Of a DNA stretch of 64,000 nucleotides, positions 2,277 through 58,722 are shown one piece after another (position 1 is the first letter of the stretch; every line of letters begins with the position of its first letter). A program made the position numbers and the translations under genes. Source of the stretch: Patescibacteria group bacterium (lineage in GTDB: Bacteria > Patescibacteriota > Patescibacteriia > UBA10025 > JAHIVO01). The notes beneath the pieces are model-generated. The model was not told where the DNA came from. It saw only the letters and a list, made by a program, of their open reading frames with translations, and did no database searches. The stretch is taken from contig JBAZWB010000001.1 of the NCBI GenBank assembly GCA_041660605.1, positions 137,295 through 201,294 of the forward strand. The letters run 5' to 3'.

Positions 2277-2307
2277 AGAAAACTAACTTTGACAATTTGG
2301 AGGTGGC

Positions 2308-4686: not shown

Positions 4687-4872
4687 ATATTTTTAAAAAT
4701 TTCCAATTTCCAAGCTCTAATTTCTAATCAATTTTTTAATATCTAATGCTAATAATGCCCAATTTAAACGTTTAATTATTGGATATTGGGGTTTGGTTAG
4801 GTATTAGAAATTTGTCATTAGAAATTCAAATAGGTTTTGGATTTCGTATTTTGAGATTAGAATTTAATTATT

Positions 4873-4945
4873 TGATGCCGGAGACCCCGTACAATTCGCT
4901 TCGCTCATGTACGGGGCAGGGAGCCCCGCTAGTCAGCGGGATCTC
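4873..4945 (+). repeat. Hairpin element: 12-nt tgatgccggaga (4873-4884, copy of 5208-5219) followed by CCCCGTACA-ATTCGCTTCGCTCA-TGTACGGGG hairpin and a second CCCGCT-agtc-AGCGGG hairpin
   Basis: Perfect 9-bp inverted repeat around a CGCTTCGCTC core; same core and flank logic at 30175-30213 and 63359-63435. Confidence 0.6.
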
Positions 4946-5207
4946 ATCATTTTATTAAGTTATTGTTTTCGAGAATCTCCGCAAAAGGCGGGATGCGTCA
5001 TCTGGTAATCAATTTTAGGGGTTATAATGGGCGAAAGAGGAGTCGCCACGCCCGCTTCGACGCAGCTGCGTCTGCAGCGAGTCGGGCGGGAACCTCCACG
5101 GGATTGCTCCCACACGGCCCTGCCACCGCCATACGGCGGGGTCCCACCTCCATTTGATTGAAAATATTGTAGCGGGAAACCGTGTGTATTGCTATTGTAA
5201 ATTTTAA

Positions 5208-5262
5208 TTGGTGCCGGAGAGAGGAATTGAACCTCCAAGCCCTTGCGGGCACACGGCCCTCC
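5208..5262 (-). other. tRNA-like 3' fragment (variable arm, T-arm, acceptor 3' strand, encoded CCA); no matching 5' half found
   Basis: Minus strand reads ...GCCCGCAAGGGCTTGGAGGTTCAATTCCTCTCTCCGGCACCA. T-arm and ACCA end are clear, but no 5' acceptor or D-arm could be folded in the 124 nt before tRNA-Leu. Confidence 0.35.
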
Positions 5263-5332
5263 GCCTTTGCCCTCATTATATTCGGGCTATGGCGGACAGG
5301 TGAACAGTGCGCTTCGTGCCTGCCTGTGCCTA

Positions 5333-5416
5333 TGCCGAGAAGAGGACTCGAACCTCCATGGGCTTGCGCCCGCTAGCTCCTGAAGCTAGTGCGTCTACCA
5401 AATTCCGCCATCTCGG
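5333..5416 (-). tRNA. tRNA-Leu (anticodon CAG), type II with long variable arm, CCA not encoded
   Basis: Manual fold: acceptor GCCGAGA/TCTCGGC, D-arm GCGG..CGC, anticodon stem CTAGC/GCTAG with loop TTCAGGA, variable arm CGGGCGCAAGCCC, T-arm GGAGG-TTCGAGT-CCTCT. Confidence 0.85.
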
Positions 5417-5487
5417 CTCAGACATAGGTAGGCAGGTTTGCTAACTTGTCCCGTCGAATGACGGGGTTTCACCACTCCGGCAGAAAA

Positions 5488-18586: not shown

Positions 18587-18738
18587 TTAGTGGTAAGTAG
18601 AAAGTTGTAGGAAGAAGGAAAAGAAGAAAGAAGTATGTAGAAAGTCTTATACCTAACATCCTTTTTCCAAACTTACTTCTTTAAACTTTAAACTAAAGAC
18701 CAATTTCGAAATTATACATTATTCATTATAAATCTTAA

Positions 18739-20400
<1,662 letters not shown>

Positions 20401-32905: not shown

Positions 32906-33378
32906 TAATGTTCATGATCAGCGCCGATTAATTGTCTGGCAACAGTCCAGTATCTTCTGAAACAAATGACGGATCAGGGTTATTATTAGTATAATTTCTC
33001 ACCTTCAGTTGGGCTGTATACTGGAAATAAAAATAATTCAAGAGGGCGGGGCATTTACGCCTGGCTAGAGTTTTTGAGTTTTCTTAATGCGCATAAAAAT
33101 ATTTATCATATTCTGACTAATGAATTTTATTATATTTTTTATAGAGCAATAGCGGGATACCCTATAAGCCGTAATTAAAAGATAGTTTTCCGTGATAAGA
33201 CTGGACAAGTCGCTGCTTTTTTGGTATACTTATGGTAGTATTGTTGTTAAGTTAATGGTATTTTTTAGCTTAGATTAGTAAAAATAATAATAAAAAAGTC
33301 TGATATCATAGCCTTCTGGGAAATCAAAGCAGTCTATTCTAGACAAAAAAAGAAGCGTTATTATTAGGCAGAAGCGTT

Positions 33379-36300
33379 GTGACTTTACAACGATTTTTCA
33401 ACAAAAACACGCCTAATTGGCTGACAAAACCAAAAAGGGGTAATAGGGGGAAAGAAATTGATTTTAAAAGCTATCCTGCGTTACTCACCATTGAGCAGGT
33501 TGGTGAGATTTTTAATATTCACGCAAACACCGTACGCAATTGGGACCGAACAGGCAAGCTTAAGGCGGTGAGAATGGGCAGCAGGCGTGACAGACGCTAT
33601 CCAAAAGAAATGGTGCAAAAAATATATCTGGAAATGCACCCAAAGGAAACGGAAGATAAAAAGGAATCAAACGAAAAGACAGCTTTACCTGCTCCGGAAG
33701 TCAGCAAATACATAATTCAACCCGGTTTTTCTTTTAATAAAATACGCCTGCTGTTAATCAGCAAGCGGTTTACTGTTTTTGTTTACTCCGTAATCATGGT
33801 GGCCGTAGCTTTTGTAACTGTTCAGGTTTCCTTTTTTGCTTATGTTTATACTATTCGTGCCGAGGAAAAGCCTCCGGAAGAATATACTCTGACCATTAAT
33901 CCTACTGTGGTAAAAGGCTGGCAAAATCCGGATAAGGCAAAAGAGATTGAAACCAAGACGAATTCTCCCATAAGTGATTTTACGGAAAAAAATGCCGCGA
34001 TTTTTCACAATAAGCCGGTAGTGTCGCCGACTGAAGCGCCAGCTGTCCCAATAAAAGCGGAAGAAGTTTTGCCGGCGGCTAACACTAACCATGAGACTAT
34101 AACTGACACCAATGTAAATATAAACACCGCTGTCCCACCCCCCAGTCCAGAGCCACCGCCAGCCAATTCTAATCTGAATCAGGCAGTCACGCCGGCCAAT
34201 ACCAATGTTAATGTAAATACAAATACCAACAGCAATAGCAATGCTAATGCGAATACTAATTCTGAGAGCGTTAACACTAATAGTGAGAATACCAATACCA
34301 ACTTAAATTCCAATTCCAACGCTAATACGGGGGTGGAATCTGATCTGAATGCAAATACTAATACCTCCGTACCTGTTGAGGGACAGCCGCAGGTTAAAGT
34401 TTTAGGCGAGGAAACCAGCCAGGTAGGCGAGGTAATAGAAACGGCGCAGGAGAATATTTTTGAAGCCAGCGGCTATGCCTTTCCCGATACGGTACCGGAA
34501 TTGGCGAAATTAAAAAGCGTGAAAATAATATACTCCCTGGCCGCTGATACTTATCCGGACAACGAGGACGTCATTACTTTGAGCTACTCCCTGGATAACG
34601 GGGATTCCTGGCAAACGGCGGATTCATTCGCCCTGCTGGATAATGTCAGTAACAGCACCCACGGCGGTTATTGGGAGGTATCTTTAAATAATATTGATAT
34701 AAAAGATTTTGCAAAGATCCGCGCACGCGTTTCTTATAACGCCGTACCTAGTGATAAAGACGCAAAAGCTTACCTCGATGGCATAATTCTGGAAGCGGTA
34801 GTCAAAAATCCTGAACCGGCCGTAGTTGAGATTCAAAACAGCGTTGAAATAGAAAAGACAGACGTCAAAATTGACGAGCAGCCGGTCGTCAGCGTGGCTG
34901 TCGAGCAGGAAAGTTTTTTCTCTTTTATTGGGGCAGCTTCACAGACGCGCGAAGTCAAGGACATTGAGCTGGTGGATCCTTCCGGTGAAGCTATCAAGGA
35001 GGTAAATTATGACCTGCAGGAAGTGCAGGAAGGAAAAACAATAAAAGCTGAATATGCGATTCAAACCGATAATTTTGACAAACCCGGACGCTATCAAGTA
35101 AAAATGCAGATAGAGCAGGACGGAGTTACCGAAGAAGTGACGCAGGAATTCAACTGGGGCGTATTGGCTATAAATCCCGACCAGTCTATTTACCAGGCGG
35201 GACAGCCAGCCATGCTCTCTATCGGCGTGCTGGATGAAACCGGAAATATGGTCTGCGACGCGGATGTCACCCTGGAGATTACCAATCCAGACGGAGAAGT
35301 GACCATAAAAAAAACCAGCGATGGCGGAATAACCGTCAGCCAGTACTGCACTTATAAAGGAGAATTCAAGGGTCCGGACTATTATACAGATTACATTCCG
35401 TCAGTCCCCGGTACTTATAAAATGAAATTATCGGCTACACATCACAGCGGCACCAATGTCATAAATGACAGTTTTGAAGCGCAATTATTCCCTGAATACA
35501 CCATCAAGCGGACCGGACCAACCCGCGTCTTCCCATATATTTATCAGCCTATGGTCCTGGAGGTAACTGCCCAAAAAGATTTTGAGGGAGAAATCACGGA
35601 AGTGGTGCCGGATGTTTTTGAAGTAAAAGACACCGATGACGCTCAGATGCGCAGGTTTACGAGCGGCACAGTAATATACAAGGAAATAGTTTGGCAGCGT
35701 GCTTTGGCCGCGGGGCAGACGATGAAATTAAGTTATAATTTCAAAACCCCGGAAAAAAGTCCGGCACTCTATTTCGTGGGTCCGGCCAGGGTAGGCGACT
35801 GGAATGAGGGGCGCGAGTGGCAGATGGCCATTGATGTGACTTATATGTACGTCCTGGCTAAGAACGCCTCTGCGCCGAGCGGATGGACTGACGATACGGC
35901 CACTTTTGATAATAAATATTTACGTGGCGCGGCGACGTTCAGCTCAACCGGTGGCGGTGCCGCGACGCACGCTCCCACGATCCACCATAATAATGTAAAT
36001 CCCTCCACTGATGCTGCTGGTACCACCTGTACACGCCGTTGCGGTGCCGTGGCGACTCTTGCCCATACTCATACGTCCAGTAACCCAACGATCGGTGATG
36101 CCAGTAATGATCCCGCTTATCACACTTTTTATGTCTGGAAAAACAATACCGGCGTCCCGGCCAATATCCCCCAGAATGCCTTTGGCTTTTTTGATGCCAA
36201 CCCGGGCGGTTCCTGGACACGACTTAGCGCGGCCGACAGCCGTTTAGTCAAACTGGACAATTCGCATACAACCGGCGGTACTGATACGCATTCACATACG

Positions 36301-39300
36301 GTCACCTGGCAGTCACTCGCTGCCGCCAGCGGTAGTTCAAGCTCGCTTGACCCTCTTTTAGGAGATGGTACTGCGGCTAGCGTACATGGGCATTTTGCGC
36401 CAGCGTTTGGATCCACGGATTCGCAAACATCCGTTCCCCAGTATGTGACGACCTTGATTTATGAGCAAACGAACGCCACTCCGCCAGCCATTCCGACCGG
36501 TTATATTGGATTGTTTGATGCCGATCCAGGCGCGGGCTGGACAGTGATTTCTGACGGTGCACTTGAGGACTACTACCAGAGATTTATCCGCGGCGATGCC
36601 ACGACTGAAGGTACCAAGGCCGGCGCAAATACAACCGACCACGCAGAAGTAACGAGCGGTGCTTCGGACGCGCCTGACACAAATGCGCTCGGCAGCGTTG
36701 GAACGGTTTATTCCGGCCCTAACCATACGCATACCATCACCACCGGCTTTAATACCGAGGACCATACGCCTTCGTATGTTGACTTTGTGGTAGCGCAATA
36801 CACTGGTGCATCATCGACAATCAATCTTTCCGGCGTGGCATATCAGGAAAATGAGAGCAGTCCGATTAACGGAAGTTCAGTCAATAAAACAGTAAATTTA
36901 CTGGTTAATGGAGCGGCCACTGCCTGCGGCGGAGCGGCCTGCACTGATGAAATAACGACGTCGGACGGCGCCTGGGCCATTACCGGCATAACAGCCGTGA
37001 GCGGTGACATTATCACCGTTTTCCTAAATGACGAGACGGAAGAAGGCACGACGGTATTTAAAAGCGACGGCGTGACCCAGACGAATATAAATATATTCCA
37101 AAACGCGGTTATCGTGCGCAATGATACCGGTACTTCCATTACTAATGCCAATCTTGAGAGCGGCGACCGGGATGCCGGCGATAATGATATTAAGTTTGAT
37201 GTTTCTTCCAGTAATGTCACGGTTGATTCCGGCTTTGAACTGCATGTCTGGACGGGCGATACGTATGACCCGGGAGGTACGGTCTCAACTAACGCGACTG
37301 GCGGCGACGTGCATGTGGATGACAGCGCTACAATATACTTCGATACTGCCACGAGCCAGGTCGGACTCGGAACCATAGTCGATGCCAGCGCGACGCTCAA
37401 CCTTGACGCGGCCACCACTTTTGGCGGCGATGTCACTATAAATTCTACCGGCACCTGGAATAACACAACTGCAAACCTGTCACTGACTATCCCAGGCAGT
37501 TTGCAGAATAATGGCACATTTAACGCCGGTACAGGCACCTATACTTTTAACGGAGCAACCAAGACATTCAGCGGCACGACCGCGACTACCATTCCTAGCG
37601 TGTCGGTTTCCGGCACATTGCAGAATAACGGTACTTTAACCGTCTCATCGGCATTGGCTGGCGGAGGCACCTTGACTAATGGCGCTACCGGCGCCTTGCA
37701 TATTGATGTGGCCGCCGCCAGTCTGACCTTAACAACTCTGACCGCCTCGGCTTCCGGCAATACGGTGGACTACGGCTATGCCGGTGCACAGACGGTAAAA
37801 GCTGTTACTTATCACCATCTATCCTTCAGTGGCAGCGGGGCCAAAACCTTGACCAGCTTAACTACGGTCAATGGTGATCTTACCTGGAGCGGCACGGCCA
37901 CCGGCACCAGCGCCTCTAGCCTGATTGTCGGCGGGAATCTGGTTATCAACGACACTGCCAATTTTTCCGCCGGTGCCGTGAACCTGACTGTCATGGGCAC
38001 CACGAGCATTACCGGTACGCTGACTTTTAATTCTAGCACTGGTACGAAGATACTGACCGGCGCCGTGACCATTAATGCCAATGGCACCTGGACTAATTCC
38101 GGCAATTCAGCTTTGTGGTTTAAAGGCGGGCTGACTAATAACAGCGCCAATACCTTCACCGCCGGCTCTGGTGCCTATGCTTTTTACACAAACGATCAGG
38201 CTATCGGCGGCACCAACGCCATCTCTATTCCCAATGTGAACGTTCCCACCATTACTTTGACTAATAACGGCACGCTCACCGTGACGACGCAGCTCACTGG
38301 TTCTGGAGGCATAACAAATTCCGCAACCGGCGCCCTTCATATTGATGCTGCCAGCTTTTCCTTGACCACCCTGACTGCCTCGGCCTCCGGCAATACCGTG
38401 GACTATGGCTATGCCGGCGTGCAAACTGTCCACGACAACACTTATCACCACCTGACCTTGAGCGGCAGCGGAGATAAGACAATGACTACGAATACGCGGA
38501 CTATCGGCGGCAATCTCACCTTGAGCGGTACGGCGACGGCGACTACCAATGCCTCAGGTACGACGACAGTGACCGGGGATGTTATTATCAATACCGGGAC
38601 GACGCTCACTGTGGCTGTAGCTTTTGTAGTCAATGGCGGTGATATTACGGGTGACGGTACGCTGACTTATACCGGTACGCCGATTATCTATCTCAATGGA
38701 ACCGGTAACCTTGGTGGCGCGACCGCCTGGACATTCTACAGTTTAAATTTAGCTGCCAGCGGTGGAACAGCGACGACGACGGCAATCGGTGCCGGACAAA
38801 TAACGATCGCGTCCACTCTGACGCTGGTCTACTATTATAATGCGGGAAACGACACGGAAAGTTTCCACCACCTGAACGCCGGGCCAAAGACCTGGACATT
38901 GAGCGGGTCGGGCACGCCATTCATTAAAAATGCAACATTTACGCCAGCTACCTCGACATTCATCTACTCAGGGACAGGGAGCACAAATATCACGGGGGCG
39001 ACCTACAATAACCTCACCTTGCAGCCTTCTTCTGGCACCCCGACCTATACTCTTGCAGATAGTACGGCGTACACAATTGGCGGTAACCTGGTCATGAGTT
39101 CAACCGCAAATTTAACAGTATCCGCTGGAACGTCCATAATTACCATGACTGGTACCTCCAATACCATCACCGGTGGCGGACAGACGATTTACGACCTGAC
39201 CATCAATCCTGCCACTGCCGGGACTATTACGTTGCAGACCTCCGGGCTGACGTTGACGCGCAATTTGATTGTTTCTAGCGGCGATATCTTCTCCGTTGGT

Positions 39301-42300
39301 GCCATCGCCCTGACTGTGACTGGTACTTCCACCATTACTGGTACGATCAATATTACCAGTGCTACTGGCACCAAGATATTTACCGGCCTGGTGACCGTCA
39401 GCACGACCACCGGTGTCTGGAATAATTCCGGCAATTCAGCCGTGACCTTCCGTGGCGGGATAACCAATAATAATACCTTCACCGCAGGCAGTGGCGTGCA
39501 TACCTTTGATACCAACAGCCAAGCCCTGACTGGAACCTTTTCCATCCCCAGCGTGACCGTGACCAGCCCTACCACCCTGACCAATGACGGCACGCTCACC
39601 ATATCAACGGCCCTGTCCGGAACTGGAGGCCTGACAAACAGTGCCACGGGCACATTGAATATCGGCGGCACGTCCGGTATCACCACGATTACTGCCTCAG
39701 CTTCCGGCAATACGGTGAACTATACCGGCGGCGTGCAGACCGTCCACATTAATACCTATCACCATCTAACCCTGAGCGGCAGTGGCGCGAAAACCATGAC
39801 CAGTGTACAAACAGTAAATGGAAATTTGACGCTCTCCGGTACGGTGACGGCAACTATCAGCTCCTCATTTGGCGTGGGGCTAGATGTAATTATCAATACA
39901 GGGACGACACTTACCGTAGCCGCTCAATTAATTGTTAGTGGCGGGGATATTACGGGTGACGGCACGATGACGTATACCGGAACGCCGACGGTCTATCTGA
40001 TCGGTACCGGTAGTTTCGGAGGCGCGAATGCCTGGAGCTTCTATAATTTGACTTTTGCTATCTCAAGTGGTGCAGCAACGACGACCACGGCAACCGGCGC
40101 CGGGCAAATAACGGTCGCCTCCGTCCTGGCATTGTCATATTGGTTCAATGGAGACAGTGATGTAAACCATTACTTGGATGCTGGCTCAAAGACATGGACG
40201 CTGTCAGGCAGCGGCACGCCGTTTCCTTATAACAGAGCTTATGCGCAATTAATTCCCAATGCCTCGACATTCATATACAGCGGAACAAGCGCGACGAATG
40301 TCCGGTACGCGCCCTACAATAACCTCACTCTGTCCGGCGCCGCGACCTATACCCAGTTGACAGGAGGCTGTACCGTGTCCGGCGCTTTGAATGTGGCTAA
40401 TGGCGCTACTTTTTCTATTCCTACTAGTATGACGGTAACAAATTCCGGGACATTCACGCTTAACACCTCTGGTACCGTGAGTGGGGCGGGAACCGTAAAA
40501 TTTACCAGTACTTCGGCTGGTCCGGGGACGGGCGGTACGCTTAGCGCGGTTGTCCAGTATGATTCATCAGGCGGAAGTATCGCCAGCACCACCTTTGACG
40601 CGCGCACCTACGTAGGGGCAGTGGATATTTATGGTAATAATTCCTCCAATTCAGTCACGGCGGCGTCTGGCACATACACGTTTTCGGGAAATTTAAGCAT
40701 TACGCAAGACGGCACCGGCACGACTACCCTGGATCTTAATACCAGCGATCCCACAGTCGGCGTTACCGGCACGACTACTATTGATGCCAGCACCATTCTC
40801 TCGGCTTCCAGCGCCAGCGCTATGTCCCTAGGCGATGATTTTACCAATAACGGCACTTTCACCCACAACAGCGGAAGCGTTGCTCTGACCACTACCGCCA
40901 CAGCGACTATCACGGGCAATACTACTTTCAATAACTTGTCAGTCAGCGGCATCGGCGCCGCCAAGACGATTACTTTCACCGCCAGTTCGGTCACGACAGT
41001 CGTCGGCACCTGGACTGTCACCGGTACGGCCGGTAATCTTATCACCCTCCAATCCTCCAGCTCGCCGACCCAGTGGACGATCAATCCGACCGTCGCTTCG
41101 GTTAGTTATGTTCAGGTATCGGATTCTAATAATACCGGTGTTGCTTTCTGCGCCACCTATTCCACTGATACGGGGGATAATAATACCAACTGGTCAGTCA
41201 GCTCCGGCGGCGTCTGCACTACTATCAATGTCTCCGGCACCATTTATACCGACGAGGGTTCCACTGTTTATAACTGCTCCAGTAACAATCTAACAGTCAG
41301 GATCAAGGTAAACGGCGTCGGTTCCTATTCAGCTGACTGTACGGCGGCTGGCGGCACCTTTGCTGTCAGTAACGTCTCCGTCGGCGCCATCAATGATGTT
41401 GTGACTGTCTTCCTGGACAACGAGACGCCCAATGCCGTTACCATTACTAAGACTGCTGACACTACGTCTAATCTTACTGATATTAATTTATATCAGAATA
41501 AGGCTATTGTCCGGCACGAAAGCGCATCGGCCATTACCAACGCTAACCTTGACCAATATGATTTTGCCAATGAAGGGAGTGACGGCGATATAGGTTTTAC
41601 CGTTACCACAAACAATATTACAGTTGCCTCCGGCTGGGAGCTGCATGTCTGGACCGGCAAGACATATAATCCGGGCGGTACGGTAGCGACCAACGCCACT
41701 GGCGGCGATCTGCATGTGGACGATTCCGGCGTCTTTACCACGGGCGGCACGACGACTGTCGGTGCAAACCTAGCCATTGATACCGGTGCTACCATGACTG
41801 CCGGCGCTTACGACCTGACCGTAACTGGCACGACGGGTATTACTGGCACCATGACCATATCATCTGCTACTGGCACGAAGATATTGACCGGCTCTGTGAC
41901 CGTAAATTCCGGCGGCACCTGGACGAATTCCGGCAATTCCAATGTGGAGTTCCAGGGTGGTTTGACTAATAACAGCGCCAATACATTTACCGCCGGCACC
42001 GGTGGCTATGCCTTTGATACGAATAGCCAGGCCATTGGCGGTACCAACGCCATTTCTATTCCCAGCGTGACTGTGACTGGCGTTACCCTAACCAATAACG
42101 GTACGCTCACGGTGACGACAGCATTGGCTGGCTCTGGTGGCATCACCAATGCAACAACCGGCGCGCTCCATATAGATGTCGCAGCGGCCAGCTTTACCCT
42201 GACCACGCTCACTGCTTCTGCCTCCGGCAATACCGTGGATTACGGCTATGCCGGTGCGCAGACCGTGAAGGCGACCACTTACCATCACTTGATCTTGAGC

Positions 42301-45300
42301 ACCAGTGGGGCAAAGACCATGACTAATGTAACGACGATCAATGGCAATCTCACCATGACCGGTACCGTCACAGCCTCCACGAGCACCTCGGGCCAAACCA
42401 CGGTGGCCGGCGACGTCAGCATCGGTACGGGGACGACCCTGACCGTGGATACGGCGAATCTGGTGGTCAATGGCGGTGACATCACTGGTGACGGTACGTT
42501 GACATATAATGGTACACCGACGGTATCACTTGATGGGAACGGCAGTTTCGGTGGGAATACCGCCTGGTCATTCTGGAATCTTACGTTCGCTGATGCAGCG
42601 TGTGCCACATTATATTCGAACGCGACAGGCAGTGGTGGGATAACGGTCAATAATGTCATGACCACCGCAAGTCAGCCCGGGGCGTGCATAGAAGTTGATG
42701 AAGTCAGTAATGCACATGACCTATACGCCGGATCAAAGACCTGGACGATCGCCGGCAGCGGCACGTCGTACGTGAAGAATAGGGGAGTATTGACGCCGGA
42801 AACCTCGACTTTCATTTACAGCGGTACTGGTTCAACGACAGTTGCCCTTGGACCGTATAATAATCTCACCTTACAGCCCTCGACCGGCACACCGACGTAT
42901 ACGCTGCAGAATTCCACGTACTCAATCGGCGGCAACCTGGTTATTGTGCCGGATATCACAGCCGGCACCTCTACCGTTAATATGACCGGCACTTCCAACA
43001 CCATCACGGGTGGCGGGCGGTCAATATATAACCTGACCATTAATCCAGCGACAGCCGGCACGATTACTTTGCAGACCTCCGGGCTGACGGTGGCTCACAA
43101 CTTGATTGTTTCCAGCGGCGATATTTTTTCTGTTGGCGCGGTGGACCTGACGGTGACCGGCACCTCCACAATCACCGGTACGCTCACTTTATCGTCTGCC
43201 ACTGGCACGAAGATTTTTACCGGCCTGGTGACGGTCAGCACGACCACCGGTACCTGGAACAATTCCGGCAATTCAGCTATAACATTCCAGGGCGGGCTGA
43301 CCAATAATAATGTATTTACAGCCGGTACCGGTGTCTATACCTTCGATACCAATGACCAGGCCATCGGCGGCACCAGCACTATCGCCATTCCCAGCGTAAC
43401 CGTGACTACTATTACCCTGACCAATAATGGCACTCTTACCGTCACCACGGCGCTGGCCGGTACCGGCGGCATTACGAACGACACAACTGGTTCACTCCAT
43501 ATAGACGTGGCGGCAGCCAGCTTAACTCTGACGACCCTTACCGCTACCGCTTCCGGCAATACGGTTGATTATGGGTATGCCGGCGCGCAGACCGTCCACG
43601 ACAACAGTTATCACCACCTGACCTTGAGCGGCAGCGGAGACAAGACCATGCCCGCCGGCACTAAGAATATAGGCGGTAATTTGACTTTGAGCGGTACCGC
43701 GACCGCTACTACATATAGCGGAGTAGGCACAACATCAGTAACCGGCGATGTCAGTATTGGTACGGGAACAACATTGACCATCGCTAAAGACATACTCGTC
43801 AGTGGCGGGGACATTACCGGTGACGGGAACTTGACATACATTAATACGCCGATTGTTTATCTGTCCGGTGCTGGTAACTTCGGTGGTGCGACCAATTGGA
43901 GCTTCTATGATTTGATTTTTTCTATCAGCAGCAGTCCAAACACAACGACCACGGCGATAGGCGCAGGACAGATAACGGTCGCGTCAGTTCTGACAATTAG
44001 CAGTTGGAATGATGGATTTGGGGAGACATATTATCATAATCTGGACGCTGGCTCAAAGACCTGGACTTTGAGCGGATCCGGTACGCCGTTTACTGGAAAT
44101 GCGACACTGACGCCAAGTGCCTCGACCTTCGTTTACAGCGGGACAAGCGCAACGACAGTCGACGCAGGACCTTACTACAACCTCAGCCTGCAGCCCGCCT
44201 CTCCGCCGGACTATGTGATCTATACCATCGGGGACACCACAGTCGGCGGCAATCTCGTCATGAGCACGCTTGCGCAAAAATTAATTACCCAAGTTGGAAC
44301 TTCCACAGTTACCATGACGGGCACCTCCAATACTATCACCAGCGGTGGTCAGTCATTATACAATCTGACCATTAACCCAAGTTCAGCAGGCACCATCACG
44401 GTGCAAACTGACGATTTCCAGGTGGATGGCGCGCTTGACATCGCTGATAACGATACATTCTCCATCCCTACGGGCCGCACGGTTACCAGCATTGGGGCGA
44501 TCACCTTGAATACGTCCGGTACGGTAAGCGGAGCGGGAACGCTATCCTTAGATTATCGTTCGACTGGCCTAGGGACTGGCGGTACGGTGAGCTGCATCGT
44601 CCGGTTTGACACGACCAGTGCGAGTATTGGAGCCGGTACGTTTGACGCCCGCACGTATGGTGGCTTGGTACAATTGTATAATAATCAGCAGACATTAGAT
44701 CGGGTGATTACCGCACCGGCTACTGGCACGTTTGTATTCAGCGGAGGCCTCACGATGAGGGTTAATAATCAGTACGGAGAGCTGACAGCCGATTTTGACG
44801 ATACGACTGACCCGACGGTCACGGTGACAGGCAGCGTTACGATTCCTGCGGGCGGCACATTCCTGGCACCTAGCAGTACGACGCTATCCGTTGGCGCGAG
44901 CTTCTCAAACTCCGGTACCTTCACCCACAACTCCGGCACGGTGGCCCTGACTACCTCGGCGGCCGCGACAATAACAGGCAATACCACCTTTAATAACCTG
45001 TCAGTGACCGGCATCGGCGCAGCCAAGGCCATCACCTTCACCGGCAGTTCAGTGACGACGGTGGCCGGCACCTGGACCGTTACCGGCACGGCCGGCAACC
45101 TGATCACCCTGCAGTCCTCGGATACCAATAACTGGACTATCAACCCTGCGGCCGCCTCGGTTTCCTACGCCAGCATCTCCCGGTCAACTAATACCGGCAT
45201 CTCGTTCTGCGCCATTTATTCTACCAATGGCGGCAATAATGCCGGATGGAATATCTCAATCGGGCCTATTTGTGAGTCAGTTTCCATTACGGGGATCATC

Positions 45301-48300
45301 TATACGGATGAAGGGTCGACGTTATATAATTGCGCATCGAATAATCTGACTATTGCCGTCAAGGTTAATGGTTATGGTACGTACAGCAGTACCTGTACAA
45401 CCGCTGACGGGGAATATGTATTAAGTGACGTGATGGTTGATGGGACCAATGATGTGCTGACTGTTTTTCTGAATAATGAAACGCCAAACGCCGTAGCCGT
45501 CTCAAAAATTGCCGATACGCCAGCGGGTATTAATAATTTAAATCTGTACCAGGATAAAGTAATCGTCCGGCACGAAAGCTCTTCAGCCATGACCAATGCG
45601 AATCTGGACAAGTATGATTTCGTCAACGAAGGCAGTGACGGCGATATAGGGTTTACTGTCACGACTAATAATATTACCGTGGCCTCCGGCTGGGAGCTGC
45701 ACGTCTGGACTGGCGATACGTATGACCCGGGCGGTACGGTTACGACCAACGCGACCGGCGGTGATCTGCACGTGGACGATAGTGCGGTAGTCTATCTGGA
45801 TACGGCTACTAATGCCATTGGCCGGGATATTCTGGTTGACGGTAGCGCCACCCTGAACATTGATGCTGATACGACCGTCTCCGGCGGCGATATCACCATT
45901 TCAGGAAGCGGGGCGACGGTTACAAAATCCACCGGCACGCCAACTGTGACAATTACCGGCACCGGCAGTATCGGCGGCGGCACGACGCCCTCAATAAGCT
46001 TTTACAGCCTGACCGTCGGCACGGCTACAGCCGCCAGCACGACAGCTGCAAATAATATTTCTGTTACCAATACCCTTAATGTCGATACCAGCGATTCTTT
46101 GGCTATTGCCTCGGGAATGACTGTCACACATAGCGGCGCCACCCTGACTTTGAATGGCACGATATCCGGCGCTGGGCGCTTAACCTATAAGAGCTCCACG
46201 GCTTTCCCGACCGGCGGTACCATTTCTTCAATATTACGCTTTGATTCCTCGTCTAATAATCAAGATTTGAGTTCGCGGACCTATGGCGGTAACGTGGAAA
46301 TTTACGGCAACAACGCATCAAATATTGTTACGGCAGCATCAGGTACTTATACAATCAGTGGTAGCTTGACCACAAGCCAGGATGGGACAGGCGCTACCGC
46401 GTTGGATTTGAATGCCAACGCCCCCAATCTGACGGTCAATGGCGCGTTGACCGTCGGTGCTAATACGATCCTCAGCTCCACTGCCAACATACTAGATGTG
46501 AAGGGTAATCTAACTAATAATGGAACATTTTCTAATAACGGCGGCACGGTACGCCTCAGTGGCACTTCACAGCAGACCATGTCCGGCTCCTGGAATGGGG
46601 CTCAACTTGCCGACCTGACAGTTACCAATAATTCCGGGTCTGATCCGGATACCAGTCCATCAGTTATTTTTTCCTCCTCAGTTTCACTTAATGGCACCTT
46701 TACTGCCGCTACCGGCGGAACCAAGCTAAGGTTCAACACTGGCATCACTTTTTGGGCTTATGGCTTGACCCTAACGGGTTCAGCCGGCAATCTGGTTTAC
46801 CTGCGCAGTTCCACGTCGGGTACGGAAGTGACTTTTGAATACGGCGGTTTGGCCCAGAGCGTCACCTATGCTGATGTCAAAGACATGGACAATGGTGGTG
46901 GTACCGTCATAAACGCCACCGGAACCGGTAACGTCAATTCCGGCAATAATACCAACTGGGACTTCGGCTCTATCCGCGTAGCTGGTACGATTTATTCCAA
47001 TGACGGAGTAACGCCCTATAACTGCAGTTCGGACAATTTGACTATCAAGGTTTCGACGAATGGCGGGGCGGTTAATTCCGGCACCTGCACGGCAGCCAAC
47101 GGCACATTTGTCATGACTAATATAACTAAGCCCGGTGCCATAGACCAGCCAATTGCCCTGTTAATTGACAGCGGGGAAACACCGCAGGCGACTTCTGTCA
47201 CGTTGGCAGCCAGTACCCTTGGTGACGCGAATATGGATTTATACCAGAACCGACTGATTATTGACTCCGAGACCGGTACCACAATGACCGATATTTTATT
47301 GGATACAGCGGACAACAGCGGTGATGCCGGAATACGTTACGCTATTGCCAGCGGTAACCTAAGCGTGTCGAGCGGGCTCGGCTTGTGGGTATGGACTGGG
47401 AAGAACTTTACCCCCGGCGGGACAGTCACTACGCCGGCGTCCGGCACTGCTGCCGGAGGCGCTGGAGATGTCAATATTGCAGCCAGCGCGACGCTTAATA
47501 TGGCTGCCAACGCGCTTTCAGTCGGCGGCGATTTTACTAACAGTGGAACATTTACTATAACTTCAGGCCAGGCAACGACATTTACCGCCACGGGTACCGA
47601 TTTCGCGATTGACGACGGTACGGCAACTTTTCAGAATATTATTTTTAATGGTTCCGGCGGAGGCTGGTCATTTAGTTCAGCGGTAACCTTGTCAGGTGAT
47701 TTGACGATGACTGCCGGCATGCTTTCCGGCACCAGCGACATCACCGTCAATGGGAACGACATTACCGGCAATGGCACTATTAATTTAACGGGTGGCACGG
47801 TTTCCCTGCCGGATACCGGCAGTCTGGGAGGGGATGCGGCCTGGACGTTTTATAATCTTTCCCTGACTCAGGCAAGTTTTACTGATAAAACAACCACTGC
47901 CATCGGCAGCGGCAGTATCACTGTCAGCAATGTTTTAAGAGGCTATAGTGCTTATGACGCGGGTAGCGACCATGATTATTTCCATATTCTCGCGGCAGGG
48001 TCGAAAACGTGGATACTGTCAGGCACCGGCACTCCATTTGCGAATGGCGGTCTTCTCGTCGGCGATACTTCTACGTTCCGCTATACCGGCAACGGGGCGA
48101 CTAATATCGCTTCTGCCGAGGATGCTACTACGAATTATTATTATAACTTAGAGCTAAAACCATCCGGTACCGCCACTTATACCCTGCCTGACGCAATTGT
48201 TAGCACGCCCCAGCGAGTGAACGGCAATCTGATAATTGGCAACGGCACTAATTCAGTTACCGTCGATGGCACGACGAATAATCCATATTATAATATCGGC

Positions 48301-51300
48301 GGCAATGTTACCTGTACTACGGGTGCTGGGACGAATACTGTCCAAACCGGCACTGCTACCTGGGCCATCGCGGGTGATTTTGATCTCTCGAATTGCGACG
48401 TATTTACCGCGACTGCGGGGAACACTATTACGCTTTCCGGCACGAGCAAAACCTACACGCATAATAACCTGGCCGGCAACCCCTATAATTTGAATATTAC
48501 TGGCACGATTGCCGAATCAACGCCCGGCACCAACTATATTGATAATAACCTAACTATCAGCGGTACATTCACCAGCACGGCGGCTACTCTAGGCGTTGGC
48601 AATACTTTTACTAATAATGGTACGTTTAACGCGAATAATGGCGATGTTGTCTTCAGCGGCAGCAGCGGTATAATTGCCGGTTCCAGCACTACGACTTTCT
48701 TCGGCCTTTTCGTCCAGCCTACCGGCAGCGGCACGGTGACGGTCAATGGCTCCAATCCTACGGTAACGGACGACCTTTCTGTCGCTACCGGAGACACCCT
48801 CTCAATAAGCAGCGGGCAAATATTATCGCATACCGGCGGTACGATTGACCTGCTTGGAATAATGTCAGGCGACGGCCTGTTACGAATTACTAACGGATCG
48901 AGTGGTCCTGGCACGACCGGCACTCTCAATGTTGATGTGCGCTATGAAAATGGCATATCGGAGACCACGCTTGATGCCAGGACTTATGGCGGGGATGTGG
49001 AATTTTATATTGATTCTGAGGCTTTAATGTCAGCATCATCCCGGATGGCCAGCGGCACTTATAATTTCAATGGCAATTTGTACATAAATGCCGTCAATAA
49101 CGCCAATATTTCTTTAGAGGGGAATTTTAATAATCCAACGGTTAATGTCACCGGTAATATTGATTTTCTCGGATCGGGTCCTGGAATGGAAATCATCCAG
49201 ACAGGCACCGGCACCTGGACGGTCGGTGGAAATATCGATTTTACTGATGGCACTTATACGGCAACAACGGGAAATACGCTGACCATGAACGGCGCAGACG
49301 CCACTATTAATACCGGCGGCAATAGTTTGTATAATTTCAGCACTTCAGGCACCGGCATTATCACTACCGCATCTGCCATTACAGTGACTAATGATGTGAG
49401 TATCGGCACTGGCAGCACATTGCGCGCCAATACAGATACCAGCGTAGCGGGTGATTTGACTGGCGATGGCACGCTGACTTACACCAGCGGCACGCCTACG
49501 GTCACTATGTCTAATACAGGCAATATTGGCGGTGCGACAGCCTGGACATTTTACAATTTGACGCTGTCTGCTGATGCCTCCAGCGATTACACGACTACCG
49601 CTGCTGGCATCGGCAACATTAACATTGATAATGTTTTAACCACCGAATCGGCTGACTGCGGCGTGGACTGTTTTCGTTATCATTACCTTAATGGCGGGCT
49701 GAAGACCTGGACGCTCACTGGTTCCGGTACGCCGTTTATAAATAATGGATCATTGACGCCGGCAAGCTCTACCTTTGTTTTTTCAGGAACGTCAGCCACA
49801 ACTGTTGCCGGAGCGACGTACAATAATTTATTGCTCCTGCCGCCGAGCGGTACGCCAACCTATACGTTGGCCGGATCGCAATATATTGCCGGCGATTTTT
49901 CAATGGCGGCTGGACTAACCATGGATGCCGGTGCGTATACGGTTACGATGGCCGGCACAAACAACAGCATCATCAGTAACGGTCAAACACTGTATAATTT
50001 AACGATCGATCCGGCGACGACCGGCACTATTACTGTACAGACAGGCAATCTGACAGTCTCAAACAATCTGCGAATTGAAGCGGGCGATACTCTGGCCATC
50101 GACAACGGCGTGACGCTGGCCCACACCGGGAATGATTTGATCATCTTGGACAGCGCGAGTACGATTGCGGGTCCCGGCCGGCTGACTTACCGCAGCGCCA
50201 CGGCGTTTCCCACTGATGGTACGTTATCAGCTGGCCTGATCCTGCGGCTGGATACGACTAGTACCAACCAGACGATGAGCAGCCGGACTGATTATCAGCT
50301 GGTGGAAATCGACAACAGCGGAGCCACCGGCGGCCGGACGGTAACCATAGGTTCGGGTACTGCGCAGACCGTTACTACGTCGGGCGCTTTGTCCGTCCTG
50401 TCTTCCGGTAGCGGTTCAGTTGAGTTGGCGGGAGCGACATATAATCCAGCGGTCAATATCGGGGGAGACCTGAGCTACACGGCGGGAGGAGGGACGAAGA
50501 CCATAACGACCGGGACTGGCACCTGGACCGTTTCCGGCAATGTCAATCTGACTAATGGCACCTTTACCAAAAGCACCGGCCATACGCTTGTTATGAACGG
50601 TTCTTCTAAGACGCTTACTTCGGCTGCACAGATATTGGAGAACCTGACGCTTTCCGGCACCATTACGCTGGCTAATGCCACCCACACAGTCAATGGCAGC
50701 CTGACGTTAAGCGGAACGGTAACTGCCGGATCCTCTAATGTAACCATGACGGGTACGTCGAATACTATCGTCGGTGGTGGAAATATTTTAAGTACATTGA
50801 CCATAAATCCTTCATCCACCGGTACAATCACGTTACAGACCTCTGACTTAACTGTTTCCGGGACGCTGAGTGTTGCCGCAGACGATACATTGAGCATTGA
50901 TACCAGTCGCACTGTGACTGCTGTAGATACGTTAGTCATTAATGGCACCATTTCAGGCGCCGGACGTTTAACATTCAAGGGCTATACCTTCCCGGGTACC
51001 GGCACCGTGAGCTCAATCGTCCGGATGGACGCGACCGATGCCGGCTCAGGCCAGAATATCGGCGCCCGGACATTCGGCGGCTTAGTTGAGATATATAATA
51101 ATTCCGCCAGCAGTAACCGGATTGTTTCTCTGCAAAGCGGTACGTTCAATTTCAGCGGCGATGTCAATCTTACCGCCGCCAACAATCAAAATGTAACCCT
51201 CGATGGTTCGGGTAATGATTCCACCGTCAACATCACTGGTAACCTTGATTTCACTGGAGCAGGCTCCGGCAGTGAAATTATCGCTTCCGGCACCGGCACT

Positions 51301-56664: not shown

Positions 56665-57576
56665 ATGAAAAAATCGTGCCCGTCATCAGTTAAATATTTT
56701 CGTATACTTTACGTGTTTGTCCCGCTATTAGTATTGATAGCGGGATATTCATTTGCCGAAGCGCAAGTGTCGCGTCAGGTTACGGTCACGGCCACAGTGC
56801 CGGAAAAACCGCCCATAGAAGAGCCGGATACTATTGTAATTTTCCGCGGCATCGCTTACCCCTCATCCACGGTCACTATTAATCAGGACGGTTCGGCTAT
56901 TTCTATTATAACTACCAATACCCAGGCGCAATTTGACGTTTCAGCCAAGGTGGATCCGGGCACTTACACTTTCACCATTATCGGCGTGGATACTGACGGG
57001 GTTGAGGGCAAGGTTTCCAATTTTACTTTGATGCTTTCAGAAGGGACGACTACCACCATCAGCGGGATATTTCTAGGACCGACTATTTCCATTGACGATA
57101 CCGTCATCGGGCCCGGAGAAACCGCCACCCTGGCCGGCACTACGGTGCCTGACAGCGAGGTTAATGTTACCGTCAGCTCGATTGGTACGGCCGCCGCCGC
57201 CGGCGATCCCCAGATTGCCGTGCATATCGCCAGTGCTGATTCAAACGGCCGCTGGCTGCAGCTTTTAAATGCCGACGAAATGGAAGCGGGAGATTATGAA
57301 GCAAAGGCGCAGTCAACAGAACCGCAGAATCATGCGGTTTCTGAATTCAGTAAAATCGTCGGTTTCCAGGTACAGGGGCAGACAGAGCCTGACCAATGCG
57401 CCGGCGCCTTGCCGGGCGATATCAACTGCGATACTTTTGTCAATCTGGTGGATTTCAGTATTTTGCTTTTTTATTGGGACAGCTCCAGCCCGGCTAATCC
57501 GCGGGCCGACATAAATACCGACGGGGTCGTTAATATTATTGATTTTAGCATTATGCTTTTTTACTGGACTGGATAA
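56665..57576 (+). CDS. Secreted Ig-like-domain protein with a C-terminal dockerin (two Ca-binding-loop-like repeats)
   Basis: GDINCDTFVNLVDFSILLFYW and ADINTDGVVNIIDFSIMLFYW form a dockerin type I-like duplicated segment. Confidence 0.7.
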   Translation: MKKSCPSSVKYFRILYVFVPLLVLIAGYSFAEAQVSRQVTVTATVPEKPPIEEPDTIVIFRGIAYPSSTVTINQDGSAISIITTNTQAQFDVSAKVDPGTYTFTIIGVDTDGVEGKVSNFTLMLSEGTTTTISGIFLGPTISIDDTVIGPGETATLAGTTVPDSEVNVTVSSIGTAAAAGDPQIAVHIASADSNGRWLQLLNADEMEAGDYEAKAQSTEPQNHAVSEFSKIVGFQVQGQTEPDQCAGALPGDINCDTFVNLVDFSILLFYWDSSSPANPRADINTDGVVNIIDFSIMLFYWTG

Positions 57577-57580
57577 ATAT

Positions 57581-58711
57581 ATGACCAAAAAAAATATTAA
57601 AATTCTGATTTTTTCCTTAATCTTCATCGGCGCTTTTTTATTGGCCGGACGGGTCAGCGCGGCAACTCTTTCCATCCAGCCGTCGCAGGATGAATACGCC
57701 ATCGGAGAAACATTCATTGTCGAAGTGCATTTAAAAGGAGAAGGGGAAATTGTCAATGCGGTGAAAGCGACCATAACGTATCCCAGTGATTTATTGGAGG
57801 TGACGGAATTATCAAAAGGGGGTTCGTTTTTATCGCTTTGGGCGCAAGAGCCAGCCAATGAATCAAGCGGCGGAGTTATCAGTCTGGCTGGCGGGATACC
57901 GAACGGCAGTTATGTGGTAGATGGCAGAGTGCTGGCTATCACTTTCCGCACCATTGCTCCGGGCGGAGCGGAAATCGCTTTTGACCAGAACCAGACGGGC
58001 GTTTATCTGAATGACGGCCATGGTACGCCGGCAAATTTAACTCTGAAATCAGGCATCTTCAACATTGCCGATCGCACTAACGTGAAAATAACTTCACCGA
58101 CCCATCCTGACGAAGAGGCCTGGTACCAGAATAAAACATTTACGGTAAATTGGAGCCCGAAAGAAGGGGCGAAGTACAGCTACTTACTGACCAATGATCC
58201 TGATAAAGCCCCGGATGAAGTGCAGGAATTCGCCGAGGGCGTAGTAACATTCAAGGATTTGCCGGACGGAATTTCATATTTTATTTTAAATGAGCAACTC
58301 CCGGGAAAATCGTGGCAGATCGTGGGCAAACGGCGGGCGATGGTGGATACTGTCCTGCCCTCGCCGATTGAAACGATTGTCAGCCGGGACAGGACATTGT
58401 ATGATGGGAAATATTTCTTGATTTTTTCTGCCGTGGACAGGACTTCCGGCGTGGATCATTATGACATTATTGAAGATGGAAAGAAATCCAGCCATGCCGT
58501 TTCCCCCTACATTTTATCAGATCAAACAAGGCAGGAAATGATAGAGATTCGCGCTTTTGATAAAGCGGGTAACGTCAGAACCGCGGTTTTGGGGGACAAG
58601 AGGGGGAGCCTAGAGGAAGAGAGGGGTTTCACCATAGCCCTGCTGATGTTTATCGGCGCCTTAATTCTCTTGCTGGTTTTTGTTCTGGTTAGGACCAGGT
58701 CAAAAAAATAA
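57581..58711 (+). CDS. Cohesin-domain surface protein with C-terminal TM anchor (start moved to MTKKNIKIL)
   Basis: N-terminal ATLSIQPSQDEYAIGETFIVEVHLKGEGEIVNAVKATITYPSDLLEVTELSKGGSF is cohesin-like; C-terminal hydrophobic segment plus RTRSKK. Confidence 0.65.
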   Translation: MTKKNIKILIFSLIFIGAFLLAGRVSAATLSIQPSQDEYAIGETFIVEVHLKGEGEIVNAVKATITYPSDLLEVTELSKGGSFLSLWAQEPANESSGGVISLAGGIPNGSYVVDGRVLAITFRTIAPGGAEIAFDQNQTGVYLNDGHGTPANLTLKSGIFNIADRTNVKITSPTHPDEEAWYQNKTFTVNWSPKEGAKYSYLLTNDPDKAPDEVQEFAEGVVTFKDLPDGISYFILNEQLPGKSWQIVGKRRAMVDTVLPSPIETIVSRDRTLYDGKYFLIFSAVDRTSGVDHYDIIEDGKKSSHAVSPYILSDQTRQEMIEIRAFDKAGNVRTAVLGDKRGSLEEERGFTIALLMFIGALILLLVFVLVRTRSKK

Positions 58712-58722
58712 CAGACCAGATT

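Follow-up and report, generated by a model that had tools for sequence, protein, structure and literature searches.

A BldC/Xis-type helix-turn-helix domain fused in frame to a giant predicted surface protein in Patescibacteria, and its candidate operator

Transmembrane transcription regulators combine a DNA-binding domain with at least one transmembrane (TM) segment, and they are widespread and mostly single-pass (Demey et al. 2023, PMC10269533). HTH_17 domains and Patescibacteria are not mentioned in the main text of that survey (PMC10269533). Here we describe a gene of a Patescibacteria group bacterium whose product carries both an HTH_17 helix-turn-helix (HTH) domain and one predicted hydrophobic helix (residues 129-157). 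It lies in a stretch of 64,000 nucleotides (nt), positions 137,295-201,294 of the forward strand of contig JBAZWB010000001.1 (assembly GCA_041660605.1), which we call the window and to which our coordinates refer. The gene is a complete open reading frame (ORF) at 33379-53412 on the plus strand. It encodes 6,677 amino acids (aa) and is listed by NCBI as MFA6098034.1, 'helix-turn-helix domain-containing protein [Patescibacteria group bacterium]'. In brief, the product consists of an HTH_17 domain at the N-terminus, one hydrophobic segment and a repeat-rich ectodomain, in this order and all in frame. The fusion of the HTH to a giant surface protein is real, conserved and only generically annotated. 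Judged from sequence, the protein is probably, though not with high confidence, an autoregulator in which a cytoplasmic BldC/Xis-type HTH is fused to a giant surface protein and is either tethered to the membrane or released by signal peptidase.

BldC of Streptomyces (68 aa, PDB 6amk and 6ama) has the same fold and size as the window HTH, shares 33-34% identity with it, and likewise lacks the coiled coil and effector domain of MerR proteins. BldC is free in the cytoplasm, whereas the window HTH is joined to a membrane segment and an ectodomain of 6,500 aa. On DNA, BldC occupies direct repeats of 9 bp in head-to-tail fashion (PMC5859096). The candidate sites at the window locus and its relatives, TAAGT cores at 9-10 nt, recall these repeats, but the candidate motif is TGKTAAGT and not the AATTnnnnC of BldC. 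The domain scored 31.1 bits against the BldC family model (NCBIfam NF033787), below the cut-off of 77, and may work like BldC without being a member of that family. Among excisionases, Xis gp37 of mycobacteriophage Pukovnik (PDB 4j2n) is the best match to the window HTH in both sequence and structure. The transmembrane regulators ToxR, TcpP and CadC share with the window protein an N-terminal cytoplasmic DNA-binding domain, a single TM segment and an extracytoplasmic C-terminus. ToxR-like proteins have an OmpR-type winged HTH and a small periplasmic sensor, whereas the window protein has an Xis/BldC-type HTH, a repeat ectodomain of 6,500 aa and a signal-peptidase-like motif. Pfam gave no match to Trans_reg_C, the DNA-binding domain of the ToxR-like family.

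RodZ is a small morphogenetic protein with an N-terminal XRE-type HTH that binds MreB, a TM segment and a periplasmic domain. The parts of the window protein follow one another in this order as well, and it too has a basic juxtamembrane stretch, but its HTH belongs to a different superfamily and no sequence relationship was detected. The controller (C) proteins of restriction-modification systems are small XRE-type HTH dimers, autoregulators that are encoded immediately 5' of the large gene they control and bind repeats by their own promoter. HTH_17 genes of the same clade as the window domain precede restriction-modification- or helicase-like genes and have a TTGTAAACTTATGGTAAGT site; the cargo in the window is a giant secreted protein, and it is fused.

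Patescibacteria (Candidate Phyla Radiation) are very small bacteria, most of them uncultivated and presumed to live attached to hosts, and giant surface proteins are prime candidates for their attachment factors. To our knowledge, nothing is known about how giant surface proteins of Patescibacteria are controlled. The giant genes of Omnitrophota and others likewise encode repeat-rich proteins of several thousand residues that are predicted to be extracellular, in uncultivated and probably host-associated bacteria (West-Roberts et al. 2023, bioRxiv 10.1101/2023.11.21.568195). These belong to another phylum and have N-terminal C39 or S8 peptidase domains near signal peptides, with no HTH mentioned (same reference). 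A literature search of incomplete coverage found no description of an HTH_17-TM-giant fusion, of the two-gene cassette or of the TGKTAAGT motif that we report below. The interest of the locus is that a regulator is fused to its probable target, with a conserved cleavage-like site between the two and a candidate operator shared across the phylum.

The HTH domain and its fusion to the giant protein

A preliminary description of this DNA had taken the first ~85 aa for an excisionase/MerR-family HTH, with the lack of any profile match as the sign against it. We found a winged HTH of the HTH_17/MerR-like type at residues 30-86 (33466-33636, plus strand), supported by Pfam, AlphaFold and Foldseek. 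Pfam HTH_17 (PF12728) matched residues 35-80 with 34.6 bits when a query of 174 aa was used, and with 29.4 bits on a query of 3,000 aa, the gathering cut-off being 27. MerR_1 was also above its cut-off (26.6 against 21.6 bits), and PF00376 was below (25.9 against 28.2 bits). Matches to NCBIfam models were sub-threshold and included BldC, IS607 transposase, the excisionase model TIGR01764 and HspR; PHROGs matches were to 'DNA binding protein', excisionase and small-terminase families. The closest solved relatives by sequence are Pukovnik Xis gp37 (phmmer E = 4e-4) and Streptomyces BldC. The assignment of the first ~85 aa thus stands, the domain being an Xis/BldC-type winged helix. The term excisionase-type holds as a label for the fold, but a role as excisionase or recombination directionality factor was rejected: TIGR01764 gave 22.9 bits against a cut-off of 28.8, no mobile-element context was found, and no integrase was present among the 29 neighbouring ORFs scanned, a scan that did not cover all small ORFs.

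AlphaFold2, run with alignment A1, gave residues 30-88 a predicted local distance difference test score (pLDDT) of 95-97. The model contains alpha1 (38-45), alpha2, the recognition helix (49-58), a beta-hairpin wing (64-75) and alpha3 (76-86). Outside the winged HTH and a helix at 129-157 the confidence was low, with a dip at 159-163. A Foldseek search against the PDB ranked Pukovnik Xis (4j2n) first, with a target TM-score of 0.82, a root mean square deviation (rmsd) of 1.2 A and 35% identity. DNA-bound BldC (6amk) came next, with a target TM-score of 0.86 and an rmsd of 0.9-1.4 A; classical MerR proteins, RacA and small terminases ranked lower. We found neither a coiled coil nor an effector domain; no helix is modelled between alpha3 and the juxtamembrane helix at 119, where there is a low-complexity linker. 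By the model, the domain is of the monomeric Xis/BldC subtype, and a classical MerR regulator was rejected for want of the coiled-coil dimerisation helix and effector domain.

Fourteen positions of the winged HTH are invariant in alignment A1: P33, L36, H48, N50, T51, R53, W55, D56, L61, R65, G67, R69, D71 and R72. In the BldC-DNA structures, T27, T29, K33 and W31 touch phosphates (PMC5859096). The DNA-contacting residues T27, W31 and R47/R48 of BldC (PMC5859096) align with T51, W55 and R72/R73 of the window protein, which are invariant or nearly so, while the key base-reading Arg30 of BldC aligns with the variable N54; the adjacent R53 is invariant. Because the former are conserved and the latter is not, the general DNA-binding surface appears to be retained, and the specificity must presumably differ from that of BldC.

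The domain is preceded by a basic and variable N-terminal extension (residues 1-29, 33379-33465, plus strand) with an R-F-F/W-type motif (LQRFF), found in alignment A1 only in the fused proteins and absent from standalone HTH genes. Accordingly, the HTH motif is offset from the start by 34-63 aa in fused proteins and by 20-21 aa in small ones. Other arrangements of the domain were also seen. P0021 (325 aa), P0022 (623 aa) and others contain 3-8 tandem HTH_17 domains of the same type. P0055 (1,357 aa) and P0041 (2,107 aa), high-GC proteins from other lineages, have an N-terminal HTH_17 and a TM segment without the GW/NSA module that follows the hydrophobic segment in the window protein, and JGI names one of them a glycosyltransferase; with these two, HTH_17-TM fusions appear to have arisen more than once.

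No stop codon separates the HTH from the hydrophobic segment in the 33379-53412 ORF, and both peptides quoted in the preliminary description are found unchanged in its translation. Two further contigs, one of 203.5 kb from ENA and one from Logan under another accession, agree with the window base for base over their whole overlap with it, including 32906-34500. NCBI and JGI also list the same 6,677-aa product, on contigs as long as 904 kb.

An exhaustive phmmer search with residues 1-174 returned 832 proteins at E <= 1e-3, whereas a word-index search with the same query gave nothing. Among the best 150 of the 832 matches there are 17 further proteins of 1,007-6,086 aa. The HTH is N-terminal in all of these, save one that is truncated at the N-terminus, and each has a hydrophobic peak at about residues 60-185, weaker in three. 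More than 12 further clusters at 50% identity also carry a fused orthologue. A search with part of the ectodomain (residues 331-1130) gave three Patescibacteria homologues, P0001-P0003, with 59, 51 and 42% identity, and each has PF12728 at its N-terminus. A homologue without HTH (P0009) has no HTH gene upstream, which is uninformative.

We also scanned the GTDB species representatives with the narrower alignment A2, which gave 219 related loci; the locus counts below refer to the best 80 of these 219. A long ORF with the HTH is present in 20 of the 80, and 18 of these 20 are homologous to the window protein well past the HTH, with 37-58% identity over up to 1,400 aa. One of the fused orthologues is located on the complete chromosome of a Candidatus Kerfeldbacteria (CP181398.1). 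In none of the fused orthologues is the HTH separated from the hydrophobic segment by a stop codon. A chance fusion is excluded because the HTH, the hydrophobic segment and the module that follows recur in frame in many independent genomes.

The mean identity to the 18 orthologues is 59% for the HTH (residues 30-86), 30% for the linker, 49% for the juxtamembrane stretch, 53% for the hydrophobic segment, 37% for the first extracellular module, 12% for the low-complexity spacer and 42% for residues 341-700. The HTH is thus the most conserved region within the N-terminal 700 aa. Of the three possibilities raised in the preliminary description, a membrane-tethered DNA-binding domain with a cytoplasmic face on a giant surface protein is the one that agrees with the data, by its fold, by the positive-inside layout described below, and by the 18 GTDB orthologues together with many clusters. 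The other two were a fusion created by a sequencing error and a wrongly called start.

An assembly or sequencing indel that artificially joined a small regulator gene to the giant gene would fit the fact that a two-gene arrangement does exist in related Patescibacteria. We nevertheless regard it as hardly credible. The two assemblies are identical at this place and the product recurs on the 904-kb contigs; all 18 GTDB orthologues, from independent projects and including the complete chromosome, are fused in frame; and the giants of the two-gene loci belong to a different family.

As regards the start, an in-frame TAG lies 12 codons 5' of GTG 33379 with no start codon in between, so that an earlier start is impossible, and GTG 33379 is the sole canonical start 5' of the HTH. 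The public gene calls are split. NCBI, JGI and Logan begin at GTG 33379 (6,677 aa), and ENA, on the same contig, begins at ATG 33634 (MHPKE; 6,592 aa, without the HTH); in practice, automatic gene callers thus differ on the start of the giant gene, and one of them cuts away the HTH. If translation began at ATG 33634 or at ATG 33610 (MVQKIY), the HTH codons would be the untranslated remnant of an old regulator gene. The ENA call is in line with this, as is the lack of a Shine-Dalgarno sequence before GTG 33379, a codon that sits inside a weak hairpin. We consider such a start very unlikely. At the protein level, conservation within the N-terminus is highest over the HTH codons, with 14 invariant residues among sequences that are 26-50% identical, and the HTH is always in frame and without a stop. 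The orthologues have an ATG 5' of the HTH, and neither internal ATG has a better ribosome-binding site. It should be noted that the Shine-Dalgarno analysis is uninformative on the start, as most window genes have AT-rich leaders without such a sequence.

The hairpin mentioned above is weak and terminator-like (33375-33392, CGTTGTG-ACTT-TACAACG then ATTTTT) and surrounds the GTG; it may hamper initiation or be due to chance. At 33457 there is an in-frame ATT (I27), at the place where standalone HTH proteins begin; 6 nt before it stands AGGGGG, which of all sequences in the region comes closest to a Shine-Dalgarno sequence. The ATT is a possible, if unproven, alternative start, and the HTH would be included from either GTG 33379 or ATT 33457. 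A direct repeat, AGAAGCGTT, is present at 33351-33359 and 33370-33378 (plus strand) and ends immediately 5' of the GTG. We rejected it as a functional element, since it is not kept in the orthologues and may be due to chance.

Separate regulator genes and the TGKTAAGT motif

In 60 of the 80 loci the HTH is encoded by itself, as a protein of 58-126 aa. In 55 of these 60, a same-strand ORF of 100 aa or more begins within 250 nt on the 3' side. For 38 of the 55 the downstream protein has at least 300 aa and an N-terminal signal peptide, and many of these proteins exceed 2,000-3,300 aa or run beyond the fetched DNA. On these gene orders, a cassette in which a small HTH_17 gene precedes the gene of a giant secreted protein appears to be common in Patescibacteria. 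The giants 3' of these small genes and the window protein belong to different families. The signal peptide of the former ends in a clear AXA, and the mature N-terminus that begins directly after it is conserved, as A / AIPKYINFQGKL or A / TGAPxIISYQGRL. These two-gene giants are found in loci L023-L083 (e.g. L037 10232-20150, L065 10167-19466 and L074 10320-19796); the longer form of the mature N-terminus reads AIPKYINFQGKLT..S.G.NV.NG.Y.F.FK.YD or TGAPxIISYQGRLTD.SG., and the family is unnamed as far as could be seen.

Separate small HTH genes in related loci had been named beforehand as a sign that the window holds two genes. Such genes do exist in other Patescibacteria, but only in cassettes that are not orthologous to the window gene, while the orthologues are all fused; this argues for a fusion of regulator and target rather than an error. 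The same HTH clade stands as a separate gene directly 5' of giant secreted-protein genes, and the window gene is for this reason probably a regulator fused to its target. The physical link, a neighbouring gene in the relatives and one polypeptide in the window, is a Rosetta-stone argument that regulator and giant belong together. Most likely the fusion arose from such a cassette of a small HTH_17 gene and a giant secreted-protein gene, and the linker of the window family would be about as long as the intergenic gaps of the cassettes.

The remaining standalone HTH genes are located 5' of helicase-like or restriction-modification-like genes, as judged by eye from N-terminal sequences and not by profile search. 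In 12 of the 14 small HTH genes linked to restriction-modification-like genes, TTGTAAACTTATGGTAAGT is found 21-37 nt before the start. The loci with this sequence (L042, L045, L047, L053-L055, L057, L059, L064, L073, L075 and L080) resemble the arrangement of controller proteins.

A promoter-like site was found 5' of the window gene by a consensus scan (33202-33230, plus strand). It consists of a -35 element TGGACA (33202-33207), a spacer of 17 nt and an extended -10 element TG-n-TATACT (33225-33230), with 10 of 12 matches and the TG. The fused orthologues share a promoter TTGGACA-N17-TGcTATAAT, followed by an invariant TTGKTAAGT and then by a second block, GCTAAnnTAAGC. In the window, the promoter-proximal motif is TTGTTAAGT (33244-33252, plus strand), invariant in alignment A3 and a candidate operator of the HTH. 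The second leader block reads GCTTAGATTAGT in the window (33268-33279, plus strand; family consensus GCTAAnnTAAGC; alignment A3 columns 37-48, with C38, T39, A41, A46 and G47 invariant).

In all 15 loci of the fused family the start of the 9-mer falls 12-14 nt after the -10 hexamer; in 11 of them, the window among these, the distance is exactly 13 nt. Such a position would place the 9-mer over the first transcribed bases. An exact TTGKTAAGT occurs within 400 nt 5' of the HTH ORF in 53 of the 80 loci. Its density there is 2.18 per kb, about 90 times the 0.024 per kb of the other 1.15 Mb, and the distant copies are mostly within coding sequence. The relaxed form TGKTARGT occurs in 71 of the 80 loci (3.18 against 0.094 per kb). 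TAAGT cores at a spacing of 10 nt were counted 22 times, against 0.1 in shuffles. Several fused loci have a tandem of TTGTTAAGT-TTGKTAAGT at 9 nt, and some small-gene loci have a perfect palindrome, TTGKTAAGT-N12-ACTTAMCAA. The same TAAGT core accompanies the same recognition helix ([VI]H[PA]NT[LVI]RNW) in two unrelated gene contexts. There is thus a conserved motif at a fixed promoter-proximal position that co-occurs with a regulator gene, as expected for an autoregulated HTH. The simplest reading of these sequences is that TGKTAAGT is an operator bound by the HTH, i.e. autoregulation.

Two other explanations of the motif were rejected. One is that it merely marks the cassettes with giant genes. 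The exact 9-mer is indeed found more often where a secreted protein follows (Fisher P = 1e-5), but the relaxed motif is also found before the HTH genes linked to restriction-modification; as it is present in both gene contexts, the motif tracks the HTH and not the cargo. The other is an RNA hairpin. For the fused family, RNAalifold gave no consensus pairs in 15 leaders, the 5' block being invariant while the 3' block varies without compensation. A search for an Rfam family in the leader gave only a sub-threshold match to L2 leader at 33584-33662 (18 against 37.8 bits), which we take as chance, and seven related loci gave nothing. The 5' leaders of standalone HTH genes are 150-270 nt long (L021, L028, L032, L034, L044, L063 and L074) and have a second block, AAGTCGAAACAAAAA, 3' of TTGKTAAGT, for which no Rfam match was found.

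Several points weigh against reading the HTH as a DNA-binding autoregulator of the giant gene. The window holds one perfect copy of the motif, with degenerate flanking repeats, and the relaxed motif is no commoner in the 64-kb window than expected by chance (four TGKTARGT matches). The motif loci are phylogenetically related, so that the counts overstate their independence and the P values are overstated. Another factor could read the TGKTAAGT motif. The equivalent of BldC's base-reading Arg30 is, as described, not conserved. One public gene call, that of ENA, begins 3' of the HTH at ATG 33634, and GTG 33379 sits in its weak hairpin with no Shine-Dalgarno sequence.

Two of the four relaxed matches in the window are located in the groES-groEL spacer (18587-18750), at 18591 on the plus and at 18651 on the minus strand. 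They lie within a long imperfect inverted repeat that contains more TAAGT/ACTTA cores.

The membrane segment and the proposed mechanism

The HTH is followed by a poorly conserved acidic/basic linker of low pLDDT (residues 87-108, 33637-33702, plus strand). Then comes a conserved juxtamembrane motif (residues 109-127, 33703-33759, plus strand; SKYIIQPGFSFNKIRLLLI) with the consensus KY[IV][IL]xPGFxFxK[IV][KR]L in alignment A1, followed by basic residues (SKRF). The hydrophobic segment (residues 128-158, 33760-33852, plus strand), identified by Kyte-Doolittle and AlphaFold, may act as a signal anchor, or it may make up the h- and c-regions of a signal peptide. In a Kyte-Doolittle scan over the full 6,677 aa, residues 124-159 were the only strongly hydrophobic stretch, with a maximum of 2.28, and AlphaFold models a helix at residues 129-157 with a pLDDT of 87-92. 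Basic residues are found on the N-terminal side of the segment and acidic ones on the far side (RAEEKPPEE). By the positive-inside rule, we infer that the HTH is cytoplasmic and that the remainder is outside the cell.

This arrangement, an HTH, a basic juxtamembrane stretch, a single TM segment and an ectodomain, is also that of RodZ. The winged HTH could therefore be a cytoplasmic protein-protein or topogenic module that docks to the cytoskeleton, a secretion ATPase or a chaperone, or that holds the N-terminus inside. The juxtamembrane KY[IV][IL]xPGFxFxK has no obvious role in DNA binding, and the non-conserved Arg30 equivalent would also be compatible with such a function. We find a RodZ-like role unlikely, however. 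The closest relatives are standalone proteins of 58-100 aa that consist of the winged HTH only, have the same recognition helix and are preceded by the TAAGT-core motif in two gene contexts, which is the signature of a DNA-binding autoregulator; and the basic wing (R65, R69, R72 and R73) as well as T51 and W55 are invariant or nearly so.

The preliminary description had seen a TM helix after the HTH. A single hydrophobic helix is indeed present, but it resembles a signal peptide with a retained cleavage motif, which had not been considered. A putative signal peptidase I site is formed by I159-R160-A161 / E162 (33853-33864, plus strand). A161 is invariant in 21 sequences that are 26-50% identical, position -3 is always I, V, A or T, and further homologues are alike. 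The layout is that of a Sec substrate cleaved by signal peptidase I, with K121, R123, K129 and R130 as n-region, a hydrophobic core and the site just mentioned; the h- and c-regions are unusually long in the subclade of the window protein. Distant family members have textbook Sec n-h-c signal peptides (RRPWVR-PVAVSAMIVAVLVAI-SSSQFAVA / DS, and WSALA / QD). A cleavage site is argued for by the Ala that is invariant in an otherwise variable stretch and by the AXA ends of the two-gene giants. Against cleavage, the segment of the window subclade is ~30 aa long, aromatic and well conserved, with a Gln in the middle, and is more like a permanent TM helix; it nonetheless ends in [IVA]-[RQ]-A / [EGD]. 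The -3/-1 rule is also permissive on its own. On balance, cleavage by signal peptidase I after A161 is a serious possibility that falls somewhat short of being probable. A C-terminal anchor was discarded as a means to decide on cleavage, because a C-terminal TM segment is lacking in the fused family and in the two-gene giants alike.

We propose the following for the tethered or released autoregulator. Translation would start at GTG 33379, and the nascent HTH would fold in the cytoplasm. The hydrophobic segment would then engage the Sec machinery with the N-terminus inside, so that the ~6,500 residues beyond it come to lie outside the cell. The HTH would bind the TGKTAAGT of its own promoter, at about +6 to +15, most likely as a repressor, and the protein would in this way control its own production, which is very costly. 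From here, two courses may be envisaged. The segment may stay as the sole membrane anchor, and the HTH would act from the membrane as with a ToxR-type tether. Alternatively, cleavage by signal peptidase I after A161 may leave behind one HTH stub of ~160 aa for every ectodomain that is exported, so that feedback would be coupled to export. In either case each giant protein would bring a single regulator with it. Since a gene of 20 kb takes minutes to transcribe and translate, it is plausible that a brake is built in. The locus and its relatives form a testable regulatory unit, made up of a BldC/Xis-like HTH, a motif of 8-9 nt at a fixed promoter position and a physical link to a giant protein.

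A more far-reaching version, which we hold to be doubtful, is that the HTH is part of a cleavable 'regulatory signal peptide' of ~160 residues. The stub, loosely membrane-bound or freed by signal-peptide peptidase or site-2 protease, would bind its own promoter, and the BldC-like HTH with TGKTAAGT would constitute a phylum-wide control cassette for giants. If so, transcription of the 20-kb gene would be metered by completed export events. Should the signal peptidase reading be true, the signal peptide would bring with it a transcription factor, which would be unusual, and expression would be coupled to export.

The tethered course of the autoregulator overlaps with a further explanation, a one-component sensor like ToxR or CadC. 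Here the ectodomain would perceive a signal such as host contact or mechanical load and transmit it through the TM segment to the HTH, which would control other genes, self-regulation not being its main task. In favour of it, the window protein falls by definition among the single-pass transmembrane transcription regulators (PMC10269533). The TM and juxtamembrane stretches are 49-53% identical in the window subclade, with an invariant Gln, as a signalling helix would show. In disagreement with this, within the 64 kb of the window the motif lies near a promoter once only, at that of the giant gene itself, and the standalone relatives have no sensor domain yet keep the motif. Moreover, there is a single TM segment on 6,500 aa of repeats and no evident ligand-binding module. 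We judge a sensor of this kind to be improbable.

Ectodomain and neighbouring genes

The ectodomain begins with a conserved first extracellular module (residues 162-215, 33862-34023, plus strand), which in alignment A1 has the pattern L.P....GW.....A..ID......F...NSA. In this module G180, W181 and A187 are invariant, and P175, N205, S206 and A207 nearly so. It is followed by the low-complexity spacer, which in the translation is rich in N, T and P (residues 216-340, 34024-34398, plus strand). A unique conserved region extends over residues ~341-1100 (34399-36678, plus strand), as seen from the 42-59% identity to P0001-P0003 and from BlastP to the 18 fused orthologues. Within it, a weak MG2-like stretch at residues 601-648 gave a Pfam match below the cut-off.

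Residues ~1100-6500 (~5,400 aa, 36679-52900, plus strand) form an internal repeat region that is rich in Thr, Gly and Asn. In a self-BLAST, internal repeats made up 79% of the protein, with copies that are 55-72% identical and some alignments of more than 300 aa. Such repeats are liable to collapse in assembly, so that the true length of the protein could differ.

The protein ends in a conserved C-terminal domain without TM segment (53110-53409, plus strand; ...IYIATATF), identified by comparison of family C-termini. The ending ...G.Y....T.....T.TF-COOH, with a terminal Phe, is common to P0016, P0017, P0019, P0025, P0061, P0069, P0091, P0094 and P0159. No TM segment or sortase motif was found in the shared domain, which could be a module for attachment to the cell wall or an S-layer.

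The neighbours of the giant gene are chromosomal housekeeping genes, encoding a TyrRS/TrpRS-type synthetase, RNase J, UvrA, UvrC, GroEL and PEP synthase. On the 3' side of the giant gene, 56665-57576 encodes Big_13/Big_6-like immunoglobulin-like and dockerin-like domains, 57539-58711 is weakly cohesin-like, and 58723-61185 encodes a CarboxypepD_reg domain. The domain content of the genes at 56665-61185 suggests a cluster of surface-assembly proteins.

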